Assembly: GCA_964596735.1 (NCBI GenBank)
Contig: CAZQVF010000005.1
Coordinates: forward strand, 13,328 to 77,327
DNA length: 64,000 bases
Direction: 5' to 3'
Source: an uncultured Gammaproteobacteria bacterium
GTDB taxonomy: Bacteria; Patescibacteriota; Patescibacteriia; UBA2591; UBA6264
The translations under genes were made by a program, and so were the position numbers. The notes under the pieces are model-generated. The model had not been told where the DNA came from and searched no databases. It was given only the letters and a program-made list of their open reading frames with translations. Of this stretch, positions 3,511-63,257 are shown piece by piece. Position 1 is the stretch's first letter, and every line of letters starts with the position of its first letter.

Positions 3511-3582
3511 GGCCAGGTAGCCAAGTAGTAAGGCAGGTGTCTGCAAAACACCTATACACGGGTGCAATTCCCGTCCTGGCCT
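3511..3582 (+). tRNA. tRNA-Cys (anticodon GCA)
   Basis: Manual cloverleaf: acceptor GGCCAGG/CCTGGCC, anticodon stem GGTGT/ACACC, loop CTGCAAA with U33 and A37, T-stem ACGGG/CCCGT. T-loop is TGCAATT (G at position 55). No encoded CCA. Confidence 0.8.
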
Positions 3583-16329: not shown

Positions 16330-16991
16330 TAAAGCAATTTAAAGTTATTAATCACTAAATGGAATTTATACCCCAGATAATTAGCGGCTTGACGGCAATA
16401 AGTCATCCTTTCTGTAAAAATTTCAAAAAATTCTATAACTGGAACAAACTTTTGGTCAATCTTTAAGGTAAGAATAATCTGTTTTTTAGATCTATTAATA
16501 CTTAGATCTGATTTGGTTACTGCATAATTCACTCGATCATGAATATCGAGCTTAATTTTTTCTAAAGATTTAACTGTTACTCGGGAACGATGAACATCTG
16601 ACTTGTCAGCCAATACAACAATGGCAGATATAGGCTCTGTTAATTTCATTGTATTTTTATCATGATTAGAGATTGCCTGCATTATCCAAACAAGTTCTTT
16701 GGAGGTAAAATCATTTTTAAAAATCTGATGGAATAAAAGGGAACCCCAATAATGATGTTGTGAACGACCTAGAAAATTACCCATATCATGACAAAAGCCA
16801 GCAATAGCTGCCAAGTCTTGACCCCTTTCACTTAGATTAATTTGTTTGGCTAAATTTTTAGCCTCACGCGCAACTAATTTAGCATGGCGCAAGCCATGTT
16901 CAGTATAATCTAATGCCTTAATAGTAATTTCAGACTGATTAATAAACTCCAAAATTTTTGGATGTTTTTTTATGTCTTGAAATGTTAACAT
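16329..16991 (-). CDS. HD-domain phosphohydrolase (second, tandem)
   Basis: HGLRHAKLVAREA...FCHDMGN HD motif; 220 aa. Confidence 0.5.
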   Translation of the reverse strand: MLTFQDIKKHPKILEFINQSEITIKALDYTEHGLRHAKLVAREAKNLAKQINLSERGQDLAAIAGFCHDMGNFLGRSQHHYWGSLLFHQIFKNDFTSKELVWIMQAISNHDKNTMKLTEPISAIVVLADKSDVHRSRVTVKSLEKIKLDIHDRVNYAVTKSDLSINRSKKQIILTLKIDQKFVPVIEFFEIFTERMTYCRQAANYLGYKFHLVINNFKLL

Positions 16992-16997
16992 ACAATT

Positions 16998-17231
16998 TTA
17001 TTTAATATTTAATTTTTCCTTAAACTTTGGGACATCAAATCCCATAATCATTTCCCCGTCGATTTCTGTTACGGGTACGGCCATCTGCCCTGTTTTTTTA
17101 ATAAAATCATCAACCAGATCCTGATGTTGACTAAGATCAACCTCTTCAAACTCGATTTTATTCTCATTTAAAAAATCTTTGACATGGTGGCAATAAAGAC
17201 ATGATGGTGATGTATAAACAATTATTTTCAT
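16998..17231 (-). CDS. Glutaredoxin/NrdH-like thiol-disulfide oxidoreductase
   Basis: 77 aa, CLYC active site in a thioredoxin-fold context (KIIVYTSPSCLYC...VPVTEIDG). Confidence 0.6.
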   Translation of the reverse strand: MKIIVYTSPSCLYCHHVKDFLNENKIEFEEVDLSQHQDLVDDFIKKTGQMAVPVTEIDGEMIMGFDVPKFKEKLNIK

Positions 17232-17266
17232 ATATTCTTAGTTAATTGGTTATTTACTGTTAGTAT

Positions 17267-17422
17267 AAGAACCTGCTTCGCAGAACCTTGAAATTAAATT
17301 CTATTATATATAAATTAAGGTAATTTAATTATAAGAACCTGCTTCGCAGAACCTACCTGCCGGCAGGCAGGCCTTGAAATTAAATTCTATTGTATAAATA
17401 ATAATGTATTTTAATTATAAAG
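17267..17422 (+). repeat. Two tandem orphan copies of the promoter cassette (17267-17332 and 17333-17422); the second carries a 12-bp GC palindrome insertion CCTGCCGGCAGG
   Basis: Copy 1 reproduces the aspS upstream region through ...TAAGGTAATTTAATTATAAG, including the equivalent of aspS codons 1-4. Copy 2 carries the GC-rich palindrome at 17356-17367. No + strand ORF follows; both point into the 3' end of the minus-strand RT gene. Confidence 0.55.
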
Positions 17423-17464
17423 ATTAGAAAAAGCTCGTCAAGTTATCTTATTTTGTAATAATAT

Positions 17465-18511
17465 TTATTCTACTAAACCTACTTTCTTTCTAAATTTATA
17501 CGTATTTCCGTGAATCAATAGTCCTTGATAAGAAATAACTGTCTGTCGTTTTGGATAATTCTTTAATCTTCTAATTATCTTTCGCTTTGTGGTTGTTCGA
17601 ATCTGTCGATAGCATGGAAAATGTATCCAGCCCAAAAAATCTAAACCCGAAGCATAAGTTCTAATACAAACCTTGTGTTGATGAAGTGTCAATTTAAGTT
17701 CTTTTTGTAAAAATTCAGTGATTCTTAACAATAAACCATTGAGATACTCTTTATTGTCCGATAAAATAACGAAATCGTCGCCATATCTAATATAATATTT
17801 CACTCGCAATTCCTGTTTTATATACATATCAAATTCGTGCATATAAACATTAACGAAAAGTTGGGAAGTGAGGTTGCCAAGGGGCAGACCTATCCCCAAA
17901 CGGCTGGAATAAAAACTAAAAACTACCCTTTCAATCAACCGAATAATTTGAGAATCGTTAATGTGTCTCTTTAATATTTTAATAAGGATTTGCTGATCAA
18001 TGTTAGCAAAAAATTTCTGAATATCGCATTTTAGAATATAACAAGTTTGAGAATTATTTTTTGATACCTTCTGGGCAAAATATCTGAATCTGTTCAAAGC
18101 GCGATGCACTCCCTTGTTTTCTCTACACGAATATACATCATAAATAAACTTTCTATCAAAATAAGGACACAGCTCCTTATAAATGAGATGATGTAATAAC
18201 CGATCACGCACCGTAGCTTTGTGAATATTTCTCGGCTTGGGGTCAGAAATATTAAAAGCCGAATATGGTCCGTGAATATAAGTAAAATTAACCAGAGACT
18301 TATAAAGATCTATTAAATTATCGGCCAGCTTTATTTGAAAAATCATCACATCTTTTTTATGTCTTTTACCACACAAAAAACGCTCCCAAGTCGCTAAGAG
18401 ATTTTCTATCTTAATAATATCAATATATTTAACTTTAAACATATGACTACAATATCTGCGCGAGTACCATTGGTGCTTGTTAGAACAAAAAGGGCTTATC
18501 AAATTTGGCAC
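17465..18511 (-). CDS. Diversity-generating retroelement (DGR) reverse transcriptase
   Basis: RT motifs including LPLGNLTSQLFVNVYM ([ILV]GxxxSQ, DGR-specific) and YIRYGDDFVIL (YxDD). N-terminal ENLL...GKR.K...PY.AF.I.DPKPR.I..A...DRLLHHLI pattern typical of DGR RTs. The real start may be Met24 (18442). TR lies ~330 bp upstream. Confidence 0.85.
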   Translation of the reverse strand: MPNLISPFCSNKHQWYSRRYCSHMFKVKYIDIIKIENLLATWERFLCGKRHKKDVMIFQIKLADNLIDLYKSLVNFTYIHGPYSAFNISDPKPRNIHKATVRDRLLHHLIYKELCPYFDRKFIYDVYSCRENKGVHRALNRFRYFAQKVSKNNSQTCYILKCDIQKFFANIDQQILIKILKRHINDSQIIRLIERVVFSFYSSRLGIGLPLGNLTSQLFVNVYMHEFDMYIKQELRVKYYIRYGDDFVILSDNKEYLNGLLLRITEFLQKELKLTLHQHKVCIRTYASGLDFLGWIHFPCYRQIRTTTKRKIIRRLKNYPKRQTVISYQGLLIHGNTYKFRKKVGLVE

Positions 18512-18820
18512 AAAAATTTAGTCAATCTTAATCGACTTGATCGCTATACTATTGGTGCTAAAATCGATGAATATTTTCTATCTTTATTGGAATTAATTTT
18601 TAAGGCCTGTTTTGCTTACGATAAATTTGAAAAACTCTCAATGGTATCACAAGCGATTGGTAAAAACGATTTATTAAAATTCTTTTTACAGATTGGTTGG
18701 GAACAAAAAACCATTAACCATAAAAATTATGGTCTTCTAATACTTTTACTTGATGAAGTTGGTCGAATGCTGGGTGGCTGGAAAAAAAATATACAAGAAA
18801 AAACTCCCGCTAGTAAGTAG
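18443..18820 (+). CDS. Avd-like accessory variability determinant (four-helix-bundle, 23S rRNA IVS protein family), on the opposite strand
   Basis: 125 aa, predicted all-helical. C-terminal LDEVGRMLGGW resembles the conserved Avd/four-helix-bundle motif, and AYQIWHK resembles the N-terminal helix. It sits between TR and RT, on the opposite strand. Confidence 0.5.
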   Translation: MTTISARVPLVLVRTKRAYQIWHKNLVNLNRLDRYTIGAKIDEYFLSLLELIFKACFAYDKFEKLSMVSQAIGKNDLLKFFLQIGWEQKTINHKNYGLLILLLDEVGRMLGGWKKNIQEKTPASK

Positions 18821-18840
18821 CAGGAGAAAAAATTAAATAA

Positions 18841-18960
18841 GTCACAGAAGCAGAGCAGGCAGTCGTTATCATCCCAAGCGTTCTCAAAGTTGCCGAGGTT
18901 GAAATTAAAGTCATCATCCGAGTTGCGGTTGACATTCGGCACGCGGTAGTTGCCGTCAGA
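18841..18960 (-). repeat. DGR template repeat (TR), 120 bp, Asn(AAY)-codon rich
   Basis: 120-nt alignment to 19299-19418 with 16 mismatches. All 15 internal mismatches are A in the TR coding (minus) strand; one T/C mismatch lies at the extreme 3' (IMH-like GC-rich) end. Read in the VR frame it gives SDGNYRVPNVNRNSDDDFNFNLGNFENAWDDNDCLLCFCD. Confidence 0.85.
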
Positions 18961-19189
18961 CAATGTACAGCCCGCCACCTTTTTCACTAAGGGTAACGCC
19001 AGTCGCCCTCTGTATTTTATTCTGAGCCAAAATGCTCAATAGCACGCTGCACCGACTGATTTAATTTTTTCATAAAAGGTTGCACTCATTTACTAAGCAT
19101 GCCCAGTAAATTCCTGGCAAACTCCCTTTACGAGAATTCGATGATATAAAGCCATGGCCACATATCCAATCTATTATCCAAAAATATTA

Positions 19190-19238
19190 TACAGAAAAAA
19201 TACATAAAAGAAAAGGGTCCTTACATTGGTAAGAACCC
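19190..19238 (-). terminator. Rho-independent terminator downstream of the DGR target gene
   Basis: Minus strand: GGGTTCTTACC-AATG-TAAGGACCC hairpin (one mismatch) followed by TTTTCTTTTATGTATTTTTT. Confidence 0.5.
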
Positions 19239-19289
19239 AAAGGGTCAAAAAATCCAAAGAACAGGACTAAGAAACCAAGTGCCTAAGCA

Positions 19290-19997
19290 CTAATCGCAGT
19301 CGCAGAAGCAGAGCAGGCAGTCGCTATCATCCCAAGCGTCCTCAAAGGGGCCGAGGAAGAAAATAAAGTCACCAACCGAGTAGCGGTCGACAGACGGCAC
19401 GCGGTAGCTGCCGTCAGAATCGATCCAGAGAGCCTCTTTCTCATCAAACGAGACAGACCAACGGCTCTTTGGCAACTTGTTTTTGGCAAGTTCATAGACC
19501 AGTGAAGCGCCTTGAGCGCCGGCTAAAACAGCTTTCTGAGAATACAGGAAATTTAAACAGTCTTCCGAAGTCACAGTTTCTGTGATATTAAAAACCTTTA
19601 CCTTGAACTTTCTGCCAGGCACGAGCTTTGTTGTCGCTTTGTTAAAGTGCTTATCAGTGATGTCGGAATTGTAGTAATTAAATTCCGAGCCATGCGCTGC
19701 TGCAAAGTCAGTCAAGCGCGTAGCATGGTCGTAACCCTTAGGCACAACAATGTTAAACGCATTGGCCAATTTGAAGCGCGGGTCAGGCATAAACGGTGAA
19801 AGAGCTTGCTGACGTTGTTTCTGTGTCAGATTTAAAAAACATTCATATTCTGGCAAACTCATTTGCCCTTTCTTGATCTTCTGATTGCAATCCATATGCA
19901 GACCAGCCAATTTGGCCGCTTCTGCGCCGATAGATGTCTTATCCATCATTTTCTCCTTTGATACCAAGAGTTTAATAATTGACCCCATGCCAATCAT
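19290..19997 (-). CDS. DGR variable (target) protein, 235 aa, with the variable repeat encoding its last ~40 residues
   Basis: C-terminus ...SDGSYRVPSVDRYSVGDFIFFLGPFEDAWDDSDCLLCFCDCD is the diversified counterpart of the TR-encoded peptide. No signal peptide is evident. Confidence 0.75.
   Translation of the reverse strand: MIGMGSIIKLLVSKEKMMDKTSIGAEAAKLAGLHMDCNQKIKKGQMSLPEYECFLNLTQKQRQQALSPFMPDPRFKLANAFNIVVPKGYDHATRLTDFAAAHGSEFNYYNSDITDKHFNKATTKLVPGRKFKVKVFNITETVTSEDCLNFLYSQKAVLAGAQGASLVYELAKNKLPKSRWSVSFDEKEALWIDSDGSYRVPSVDRYSVGDFIFFLGPFEDAWDDSDCLLCFCDCD
19299..19418 (-). repeat. DGR variable repeat (VR) at the 3' end of the target gene
   Basis: See TR. A GC-rich invariant 3' segment (CGACTGCCTGCTCTGCTTCTG) forms an IMH-like end. 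A small hairpin GTGC-TTAG-GCAC abuts the stop codon. Confidence 0.85.
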
Positions 19998-20092
19998 TTT
20001 CTCAGTATTGATAATATTATGTCATATTTTAGCCTTTTTGTCAACACTCCTATTCCAAAAGACTTAAAATTTATATTAATCTAAAATAAAAA

Positions 20093-20200
20093 CACCGCCG
20101 AGGAGAATCGAACTCCTGAGACGGATTTGCCTTTAGCGGAAAACCTGGCGTCCTACAATGCTTAATAAATTAAAATGGCCCCGAGGAGAATTGAGTGAAA
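20093..20200 (-). other. Two tRNA 3'-end-like fragments (T-arm plus acceptor 3' strand), possible integration scars
   Basis: Minus strand: GGAGTTCGATTCTCCTCGGCGGTG (20093-20116) and CAATTCTCCTCGGGGCCA (~20177-20194). No complementary 5' acceptor strand or D/anticodon arms could be built. Confidence 0.3.
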
Positions 20201-20201
20201 A

Positions 20202-20891
20202 TTATTTTAATCCACTTTGTAATTTTAACGCGTCAATCCATCCTTTAATTCGAAAAGCTATCTTACGACCATGTACACGTAAATCAAGTGTGCCATATGG
20301 CAAAGAATTGATTGGACGTTTTCTGTTGCTCGCTTTGCTTATTTGTTTAAAAATGCGAAAACGACTTTTAGGAATATTAGTTACTCTAGCCCAAAAATTA
20401 ATGGCAGATTGCTCGCTAATATTAGCATGTATTCTAACACATACTTTTAATTTCTCTTCAGGGACTTTAATAATTTCTCGTAAAAAGCGAAGAAACAACG
20501 CAATCATATAAGGATCAGCATTAACAAAATCAACTACATACCCTTTGTTTTTTTGAGCCTCAATTTTATATCCCTCTGCCCAATAAAGAGCATTTGCAAC
20601 TAATAATAACTCATATTTTGACAACGAATGAATTTCATTAAAAGTCTCCTTCTTTATTCTCTGATTTTCAATCCAAATAGCACGTGTCCGTTGCCGATTG
20701 TTTTCAAATAACCCATGTTCTCGAGCAATTCTCGTTTTTTTTTCTAAAAGCTTTTTTGCTGACTTTGTTAGTTTTAAGTCTCTAAACCAAACGCTAAGCG
20801 AGCCCTTGGAAACACTTAAAGTACGAGCTATTTCATTGTAACTTTTACCCTTTAACCGCAACCTGAGCGCTTTTTGATATTGTGGATGCAT
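20202..20891 (-). CDS. HTH-domain protein of unknown function (transposase-type HTH; possible homing-endonuclease-like C-terminal region)
   Basis: KGKSYNEIARTLSVSKGSLSVWFRD is a transposase/sigma-region-4-like HTH; NALYWAEGYK is vaguely LAGLIDADG-like. The ORF track starts at 20954 inside tRNA-Glu; I prefer Met22 (20891). Confidence 0.35.
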   Translation of the reverse strand: MHPQYQKALRLRLKGKSYNEIARTLSVSKGSLSVWFRDLKLTKSAKKLLEKKTRIAREHGLFENNRQRTRAIWIENQRIKKETFNEIHSLSKYELLLVANALYWAEGYKIEAQKNKGYVVDFVNADPYMIALFLRFLREIIKVPEEKLKVCVRIHANISEQSAINFWARVTNIPKSRFRIFKQISKASNRKRPINSLPYGTLDLRVHGRKIAFRIKGWIDALKLQSGLK

Positions 20892-20909
20892 AATAATTAA
20901 ATATATAAG

Positions 20910-20982
20910 TAGCGCCAAGGGGAATCGAACCCCTGTTACATGGTTGAAAACCATGTGTCCTGACCACTAGACGATGGCGCCA
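20910..20982 (-). tRNA. tRNA-Glu (anticodon TTC)
   Basis: Minus strand GGCGCCATCGTCTAGTGGTCAGGACACATGGTTTTCAACCATGTAACAGGGGTTCGATTCCCCTTGGCGCTA. D-arm TCGTCTAG...GGAC as in bacterial tRNA-Glu, anticodon loop TTTTCAA, canonical TTCGATT T-loop, G1-U72 wobble. Confidence 0.8.
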
Positions 20983-58727: not shown

Positions 58728-58741
58728 AAAAATATTTAATA

Positions 58742-58815
58742 TCGGGCTGGCCGGCTCCGCCCCGGCGACCTCATCTCCCCCAGAGATGCGCGCTAACTAA
58801 CTGCGCCACAGCCCG
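58742..58815 (-). tRNA. tRNA-Pro (anticodon GGG) with non-canonical D- and T-loops
   Basis: Perfect 74-nt cloverleaf on the minus strand: CGGGCTG-TG-GCGC-AGTTAGTTA-GCGC-G-CATCT-CTGGGGG-AGATG-AGGTC-GCCGG-GGCGGAG-CCGGC-CAGCCCG-A. U8, A14, G19-C56, G53-C61, U33 and G37 are conserved; positions 54/55 are GG instead of T-psi; the D-stem GCGC/GCGC matches bacterial tRNA-Pro. It is a GC-rich island in AT-rich DNA. Confidence 0.55.
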
Positions 58816-58826
58816 ACATTCAAAAT

Positions 58827-62908: not shown

Positions 62909-63257
62909 GGGGGTGAAAGGAATCGACAGGAAGCCAGTGTTAAAGACAGCTTTTTGTCCTGAGAAAGACACAAAAATTCTCAAAAAACATAATTGCCAAC
63001 GAAAAGTTAGCATTTGCTGTAGCTTAAACAAGCTAAAGCCGTTAAGACTAAAGACTCCTCCTATTTAGTCATTGACGTCAATCTAGAAGGATCGACATTT
63101 TGGTTGCCTGGATCAAAATGTTTAAAAAATCAGGATAGAGTTTAAGAATTTTGTCTTGTTTCAATTCTAAAACTCAAATAGAACAAACAAGACTATAAAA
63201 GTAGACATTTTTAACAGCACTTTCTAGACGGGAGTTCGATTCTCCCCACCTCCACCA
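62909..63257 (+). ncRNA. ssrA: tmRNA (ssrA), 349 nt, predicted tag peptide ANEKLAFAVA
   Basis: 5' GGGGGTG pairs with 3' CACCTCC giving a G3-U70 wobble. tRNA-like T-arm GGGAG-TTCGATT-CTCCC, discriminator A and encoded CCA at 63255-63257. Internal resume codon GCC at 62995 then AAC GAA AAG TTA GCA TTT GCT GTA GCT TAA. smpB is in the window. Confidence 0.8.

Follow-up and report, generated by a model that had tools for sequence, protein, structure and literature searches.

An apparently complete diversity-generating retroelement from a Patescibacteria chromosome and covarying RNA helices around its template repeat

The cassette and its reverse transcriptase

The window analysed here is a stretch of 64,000 nucleotides (64 kb) from contig CAZQVF010000005.1, and our subject is a reverse transcriptase (RT) gene within it, together with the diversity-generating retroelement (DGR) that surrounds this gene. 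Read along the minus strand, the cassette consists of a target gene that carries a variable repeat (VR) at its C-terminal end, a non-coding stretch of ~340 nt, a template repeat (TR) and the RT gene, with an avd gene inverted between TR and RT. The open reading frame (ORF) of the RT occupies 17465..18511 (-) and gives 348 residues when read from a GTG at 18511; the DGR RT gene proper is 17465..18442 (-), with 325 residues read from an ATG at 18442. The avd gene (125 residues) lies on the opposite strand at 18443..18820 (+). The TR is found at 18840..18960 (-) and is a direct repeat, 121 nt long, of the VR at 19298..19418 (-), which codes for ~40 residues at the C-terminus of the target. The target ORF itself spans 19290..19997 (-) and is 235 residues long.

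An earlier note on this DNA described a 348-residue minus-strand ORF bearing the motifs LPLGNLTSQ and YGDD, and such an ORF is present as claimed, with GLPLGNLTSQLF and IRYGDDF in its translation. The open frame stands, but its translation start had probably been set 23 residues too far upstream. An identical 325-residue protein (P0001), with the N-terminus MFKVKY, is called by NCBI, JGI, ENA and Logan, and homologues of the RT are 323–330 residues long, the family alignment beginning at the Met of MFKVKY. Because both the public calls and the homologues begin at this residue, the first 23 residues of the longer ORF are probably untranslated, and the true start is almost certainly the ATG at 18442. 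An N-terminal extension from the GTG would, moreover, overlap the well-supported avd gene on the opposite strand. The 330-bp gap that the note gave between the RT start and the TR is correct for the 348-residue ORF (18511 to 18840); counted from the ATG at 18442 the gap becomes 397 bp, and avd, an inverted gene that had been missed, fills it. The conclusion that the element is a DGR is unaffected either by this omission or by the over-extended ORF.

The product of avd matches the Pfam family bAvd at 47.5 bits (cut-off 40) and PHROG 3206, 'Avd protein of DGR', with E = 1.3e-15. Its ATG abuts the ATG of the RT gene back to back (CAT-ATG, with the junction at 18442/18443), and in related loci the 5' ends of the two genes likewise abut or overlap, as judged qualitatively. 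Since no intergenic space separates the two starts, the promoter of either gene has to be located within the other one or at a greater distance.

The architecture of the cassette is B3, that is, TR-(avd)-RT. Wu et al. 2018 (Nucleic Acids Res 46:11, PMC5758913) described it for DGRs of the Candidate Phyla Radiation (CPR)/Patescibacteria, in which a reverse-strand avd separates TR from RT. The present locus agrees with these in order, orientation and host group, its target likewise has no recognisable Pfam domain, and it shows no architectural difference; the RNA features around the TR that we describe below were not found in the literature examined. A family survey, in which one genome per species was scanned, yielded 80 loci with RTs 54–71% identical. 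Most of these are named as Patescibacteria-group lineages, while many have generic titles and a few have other names. With six contigs from the organism of the window and the window region itself added, the set comprises 87 loci, in 82 of which an Avd-like ORF is inverted and abuts the RT start; the other five have little sequence upstream of the RT. Adenine-biased TR/VR pairs were recognised at 60 loci of this set of 87. In 55 non-redundant loci the TR mostly ends within ~25 nt of the avd stop codon, and the VR usually lies 260–420 nt upstream of the TR. We conclude that the locus is an ordinary member of the known CPR-type DGR class.

The architecture of DGRs also tracks RT similarity on IMG/VR contigs (L087-L166). 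Where avd was detected, contigs whose RT is at least 42% identical are of the B3 type and have no spacer, and relatives with both avd and TR detected and an RT 33–40% identical show the canonical order of avd(+), TR, a gap of ~200 nt and RT. Some of the B3-type DGRs lie on contigs classified as viral.

The sole Pfam domain in the RT ORF is RVT_1, at residues 92-295 (E = 2.3e-21; 76.9 bits, cut-off 29.6), and after the thumb only ~30 residues remain to the C-terminus. In a search of all PDB sequences the closest relative is 8ub7_A, a 328-residue 'Reverse transcriptase' that aligns with query residues 9-305 (E = 5.9e-40, 140.9 bits). Residues D138, D215 and D216 in this alignment fall on KSD and YMDD. 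The same three are the catalytic residues named for bRT, the RT of the Bordetella phage DGR (bioRxiv 10.1101/2023.10.23.563531), and because the numbering agrees we read 8ub7_A as bRT. Homology with the RT of this BPP-1 element (bRT, Avd, TR and mtd) extends over the whole length, and IGxxxSQ and YxDD are kept. The next PDB matches are group II intron RTs at 61–67 bits (best 66.8), Drt3a at 37 and the retron Ec83 RT at 23.6, so that bRT leads the next RT class by 74 bits.

Motif 4 points the same way. The query LGNLTSQ aligns with IGSLTSQ of bRT, where the group II intron RTs show PQGGNLSP, and G189, S193 and Q194 are invariant in a family alignment of 21 homologues, as are the Y, D and D of YGDD. 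This bears out the use that had been made of [ILV]GxxxSQ as a DGR-type motif. PHROG 1423 (reverse transcriptase) matches the protein at E = 4.6e-92, and of its more than 7,900 homologues those with names come from Patescibacteria or Paceibacterota metagenome-assembled genomes. The RT family is established, and by sequence comparison the enzyme is closer to the characterised DGR RT than to RTs of any other class.

A group II intron-type or group-II-like (G2L) RT, unrelated to the neighbouring repeats, would account for the top NCBIfam match, TIGR04416 (group II intron RT/maturase, E = 2.3e-37), and for the title 'reverse transcriptase/maturase family protein' on some public records of relatives. 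The match, however, scores 129 bits where the cut-off is 300, its extent is limited to the RT core, and no DGR RT model is among the six NCBIfam families listed for the protein; for these two reasons it does not refute the DGR assignment. The earlier note had named best profile hits to retron or group II clades as grounds for rejection, a condition that the NCBIfam result touches on the surface but not in substance. Group II intron RTs such as GsI-IIC (6ar1) have the fingers, palm and thumb core in common with the present enzyme and are its next-best PDB relatives, yet the best of them scores 67 bits, less than half the 141 of bRT, and their motif 4 differs. The ~30 residues after the thumb leave no room for an X/maturase or En domain. 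The earlier note was right that maturase and endonuclease domains are lacking, Pfam finding RVT_1 alone in the ORF, and right too that intron RNA domains do not flank it: searches with Rfam found no group II intron, retron or other family around the RT ORF, either at gathering thresholds (whole 64-kb window) or at E<=5 (16900-20300). We regard the group II explanation as exceedingly improbable. Several relatives are labelled 'retron-type reverse transcriptase' by JGI, and the protein weakly matches models for retron St85 (59 bits), Drt3a (75 bits) and PADLOC UG17 (92 bits), all of which would suit a retron or defence-associated (DRT/UG/Abi) RT. All these scores are far under the family cut-offs (235, 200), those same Rfam searches give no msr/msd-like RNA, and no effector gene is adjacent to the RT, whose neighbours are instead avd, the TR/VR pair and a diversifying target. 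This origin, too, is highly improbable.

Template and variable repeats and their variation in natural populations

The two repeats differ at 15 of 121 positions, and 14 of these mismatches fall at TR adenines, which are changed to G, T or C (hypergeometric p = 7e-10). It is because the differences fall at adenines of the RT-proximal copy that this copy is identified as the TR and the distal one as the VR. Adenine-specificity of the TR/VR differences is thus established at this locus, and with it every testable element of the earlier DGR reading has held. No further VR-like sequence occurs in the 64-kb window, and the TR is identical in every contig of the same organism that covers it.

The target is likely to start at Met18 of its ORF, at 19946, which would give a protein of 218 residues. 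Structure prediction suggests a helical N-terminal part and a C-terminal part with a C-type-lectin-like fold. Directly after the VR lies an array of CTT(N)G motifs with a spacing of 7-8 nt (19215..19297 (-)), closed by a terminator-like hairpin that was found in a hairpin scan (19238-19215 (-)). Such motifs are enriched after the VR in 53 loci, at 3.7 per 110 nt compared with 0.74 in control windows (p = 2e-32), and are mostly within the first ~60 nt. The array might act in retrohoming as a signal at the DNA or RNA level, or it might be bound by a protein.

Natural variants of the VR came from two sources, contigs that encode the identical RT and the cluster that groups target proteins at 90% identity. 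The identical RT is found on at least 16 contigs. One of these, the 315-kb JGI contig L001, differs from the window by 16 mismatches over 8,978 bp, and all 16 lie at 19324-19414, within the VR; 15 are opposite TR adenines. The TR, avd, the RT gene and ~8 kb of flanking housekeeping genes are identical in the two. The target cluster comprises four distinct proteins that are identical at residues 1-194 and differ only at VR-encoded positions, residues 195-225. Exact-match scans of metagenome contigs with a segment of the target gene and with the 3' end of the TR gave no match. Natural diversification confined to the VR is therefore established. Because all differences over the 8,978 bp are confined to the VR and the alleles vary only in VR-encoded residues, we take this variation to be the signature of ongoing mutagenic retrohoming in wild populations.

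Were the element instead a relic, with its architecture intact and diversification ceased, one would expect the sharing of a single VR that is indeed seen in most of the retrieved contigs of the organism (L002, L003, L005, L006 and the window). Four VR alleles on otherwise identical backgrounds speak against this, as does the lack of any substitution outside the VR over 8.9 kb between the window and L001. Alleles from long-separated lineages would come with proportionate divergence elsewhere, and the opposite is seen over these 9 kb. The catalytic motifs, the TR and avd are intact, and all contigs have them in identical form. We consider a relic very unlikely.

Besides the group II profile match discussed above, several observations weigh against a complete and active DGR. 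The sole TR/VR difference that is not at an adenine, T/C at 18844, lies five bases from the 3' end, following the GC-rich 3' stretch in which TR and VR are identical. One of the differences between L001 and the window (19406, T to G) is at a TR thymine, and could reflect either a rare misincorporation at a base other than adenine or an ordinary single-nucleotide polymorphism. The NCBIfam model DivGenRetAVD gives the Avd protein 52.6 bits, under its cut-off of 80. A terminator-like hairpin between TR and RT, together with the abutting start codons, leaves no intergenic space for an RT promoter. Finally, a conserved GC-rich hairpin after the VR, important in the Bordetella element, is unsupported in the present clade, being found in 18 of 53 loci compared with 21% of control windows. 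Taking all of this into account, we are nevertheless highly confident that the ORF encodes a DGR reverse transcriptase, and that it does so within a complete, currently active DGR that a CPR bacterium (Patescibacteria) carries on its chromosome.

The difference at 18844 has counterparts in other loci. In ~19 of the 55 related loci a fixed difference recurs within the last ~10 nt, with ...CGAAAC... in the TR and ...CGCAAC... in the VR, and its counterpart in the window is TGTGAC in the TR and TGCGAC in the VR. It looks like the distinction between IMH* and IMH (initiation of mutagenic homing) and not like random adenine mutagenesis. Across related loci, the last 12 nt of the TR hold 23 of the 52 non-adenine TR/VR differences, compared with 36 of the 914 adenine differences.

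RNA structure around the template repeat

The TR appears to be embedded in an RNA of ~380 nt with strong covariation support. In a 52-locus alignment the non-coding stretch of ~340 nt on the 5' side of the TR is conserved in blocks, and ~220 nt of it are structured. The best defined part is a domain directly 5' of the TR (18965..19052 (-)), identified with RNAalifold and a covariance model, that contains three helices. P1, with 12 base pairs (19052-19041 with 18976-18965), encloses the hairpins P2 (19037-19034 with 19027-19024) and P3 (19010-19006 with 18993-18989), and its 3' strand ends 4 nt before the TR. Between P2 and P3 there is an A-rich single strand of 13 nt. RNAalifold reports compensatory changes in 20 of the 21 pairs of this domain, and 94.3% of cells are paired, whereas shuffles give 67.8% and slid controls no more than 50%. 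The covariance model finds one strong match in the window, at 18956-19082 (83.6 bits, E = 2.6e-15), and two weak ones elsewhere (E = 0.08 and 0.35). When applied to loci outside its training it gives strong matches in 13 genome loci and four viral contigs, and a weak match in one further viral contig, in each case at the expected place. No Rfam family matches the leader RNA at E<=5 over 16900-20300.

Further upstream, two leader hairpins on the same strand, A (19165-19144) and B (19120-19080), are likewise supported by covariation, with 94.9% of cells paired; for shuffles the value is 61.2%, and slid controls do not exceed 52.5%. These helices around the TR, supported as they are by covariation, are established. 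An extended -10-like element, TGTATAAT at 19186..19193 (-), was read from the sequence and is a candidate for the promoter that drives the TR RNA; the 52-locus alignment shows a conserved TA.A.T here, and the element was not reported by a consensus promoter scan.

On the 3' side of the TR lies a terminator-like hairpin of 9 bp with a 5-nt loop, followed by a T-run (18798..18826 (-)), that overlaps the avd stop codon. It begins 13 nt from the TR, whose end is 19 nt from the avd stop codon, and the sequence beyond the hairpin and T-run is antisense to the avd coding sequence. Alignment with MAFFT followed by RNAalifold gave no structure here, the stems being misaligned, and the hairpin was scored locus by locus against control windows. 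A hairpin with a T-run is present in 49-51 of the 55 related loci, compared with 2.4% of control windows, and its stems have 48 different sequences. This variation in the stems, and the varying position of the avd stop codon with respect to it, indicate that conservation of the hairpin is not a by-product of Avd coding. 'Avd-binding stem-loops' of ~9 bp just downstream of the TR have been reported in 207 of 278 DGRs, CPR included (Handa et al.), and the Avd-binding stem-loop of the Bordetella DGR RNA matches the hairpin in position.

The two sides of the TR are connected by a long-range pairing. Strand a (AAAAAATTAAATCAGTCG, 19053..19070 (-)) lies just 5' of an almost invariant GGTG, and its 3' partner, strand a' (18827..18845 (-)), comprises the last bases of the TR, position 18844 among them, and the linker to the hairpin. 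In the window the duplex pairs AAAAAATTAAAT.CAGTCG with TGACTT.ATTTAATTTTTT at -15.3 kcal/mol and closes the TR into a loop. From locus to locus, changes in one strand are matched by changes in the other, as with AAAATGAAGAT and CTCTTCATTTC, and cognate pairs are better than non-cognate ones (p = 1.2e-5). A global duplex search, between 95 nt around the upstream side and 135 nt around the downstream side of the TR, gave results like those of shuffles (mean z = -0.2); the pairing is clear only when the search is limited to two short stretches, the segment just 5' of GGTG and the linker that leads to the hairpin. The clustering of non-adenine differences in the last 12 nt is consistent with the 3'-terminal TR bases being paired instead of copied.

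In the BPP-1 element, in contrast to the present locus, avd lies upstream in the same orientation, and TR and RT are separated by a 140-nt structured spacer that supplies the primer and the RT-binding elements; here avd is inverted, there is no spacer, and it is on the 5' side of the TR that ~220 nt of covarying structure are found. The Bordetella RNA consists, in order, of an upstream strand, the TR, the Avd-binding stem-loop, the primer strand (Sp53-56, with priming at A56), the cPRT-Stop strand (Sp59-70, which pairs with the upstream strand), a small stem-loop, adenosines, a single-stranded 'thumb ring' and a long bRT-binding stem-loop. The order here is strand a, GGUG, the 5' strand of P1 (12 nt), the P2 stem-loop, the A-rich single strand of 13 nt, the P3 stem-loop, a single strand, the 3' strand of P1, the TR, strand a' and a stem-loop with a U-run. 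If the ends of the Bordetella RNA were joined and the circle were opened between its Avd stem-loop and its primer strand, this order would result.

Analogy and covariation together lead us to propose, tentatively and as something we hold to be rather less than evenly probable, that the DGR RNA of the B3 type found in CPR bacteria is a circular permutation of the Bordetella one, with its primer upstream of the template. In such a model the a/a' duplex would keep the new 5' and 3' ends in contact. The nucleotide that primes synthesis would be placed upstream of the template, as it is in retrons, and the permuted RNA would explain both the inverted avd and the terminator directly after the TR. 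No description of a permuted layout was found in the searchable literature; the leader RNA may have been described before in Paul et al. 2017 (Nat Microbiol), the principal study of DGRs in the CPR. A published conservation survey covered only 40 nt upstream and 100 nt downstream of the TR, and because no more than 40 nt on the 5' side were examined it would have missed the leader RNA.

Genomic setting and significance

The genes that flank the cassette are housekeeping genes (tsaD, tsaE, valS, clpP, RNase Y and rbfA), and for this reason we take the element to be chromosomal and not an obvious prophage, whereas the DGR of BPP-1 is phage-borne. A tmRNA gene at 62909-63257 (+), which scores 143.8 bits with Rfam and encodes the tag peptide ANEKLAFAVA, and the genes for tRNA-Cys (3511-3582) and tRNA-Pro (58741-58816) are ordinary chromosomal features.

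Upstream of the target there is a promoter-like site at 20016..20044 (-), with TTGACA and CATAAT separated by 17 nt and with a TG, a match to the consensus only. Just upstream of this site sits a fragment of tRNA-Glu. The tRNA-Glu gene is at 20909-20981, and a 46-nt copy of its 3' part, 76% identical, is found at 20073-20118 (compared with 20890-20935 (-)). Between gene and fragment there is a single ORF of ~240 residues (20202..20954 (-)) with an N-terminal helix-turn-helix (HTH), which matches Sigma70_r4_2/HTH_23 weakly and also PHROG 664, DNA-binding. The arrangement resembles a scar left by insertion at a tRNA 3' end. At the other end of the cassette, downstream of the RT stop codon, 17255-17420 contains two overlapping families of direct repeats, 49 nt x2 and 34 nt x2, that are 88% identical. 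Each repeat bears a small hairpin, TCTGCGAAGCAGG, followed by a T-rich run, and the repeats look like duplicated terminator-like units between the RT gene and a glutaredoxin gene.

The way in which the cassette could work is suggested by the Bordetella phage paradigm, from which cis-priming, formation of an Avd-RT complex and retrohoming are inferred by analogy. An RNA of ~380 nt that carries the TR would be transcribed from the minus strand, with predicted ends near 19179 and 18798-18803, and the RT, together with Avd, would copy the TR into cDNA while misincorporating opposite template adenines. Replacement of the VR by this cDNA would recode up to ~14 residues on the ligand-binding face of a protein with a C-type-lectin fold.

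DGRs are abundant in CPR bacteria, organisms that are thought to depend on attachment to hosts. The classification of the RT is in itself routine and the layout of the cassette is standard for CPR, so that the RT is of modest interest. The locus does provide a clean natural case of ongoing diversification, with four alleles and no change outside the VR over 9 kb, and its target represents a small unannotated family of lectin-fold proteins. The part most worth attention is the layout of the RNA, since the covarying structure around the TR offers a testable model of how cDNA priming and termination may proceed in B3 DGRs, which have no spacer between TR and RT.

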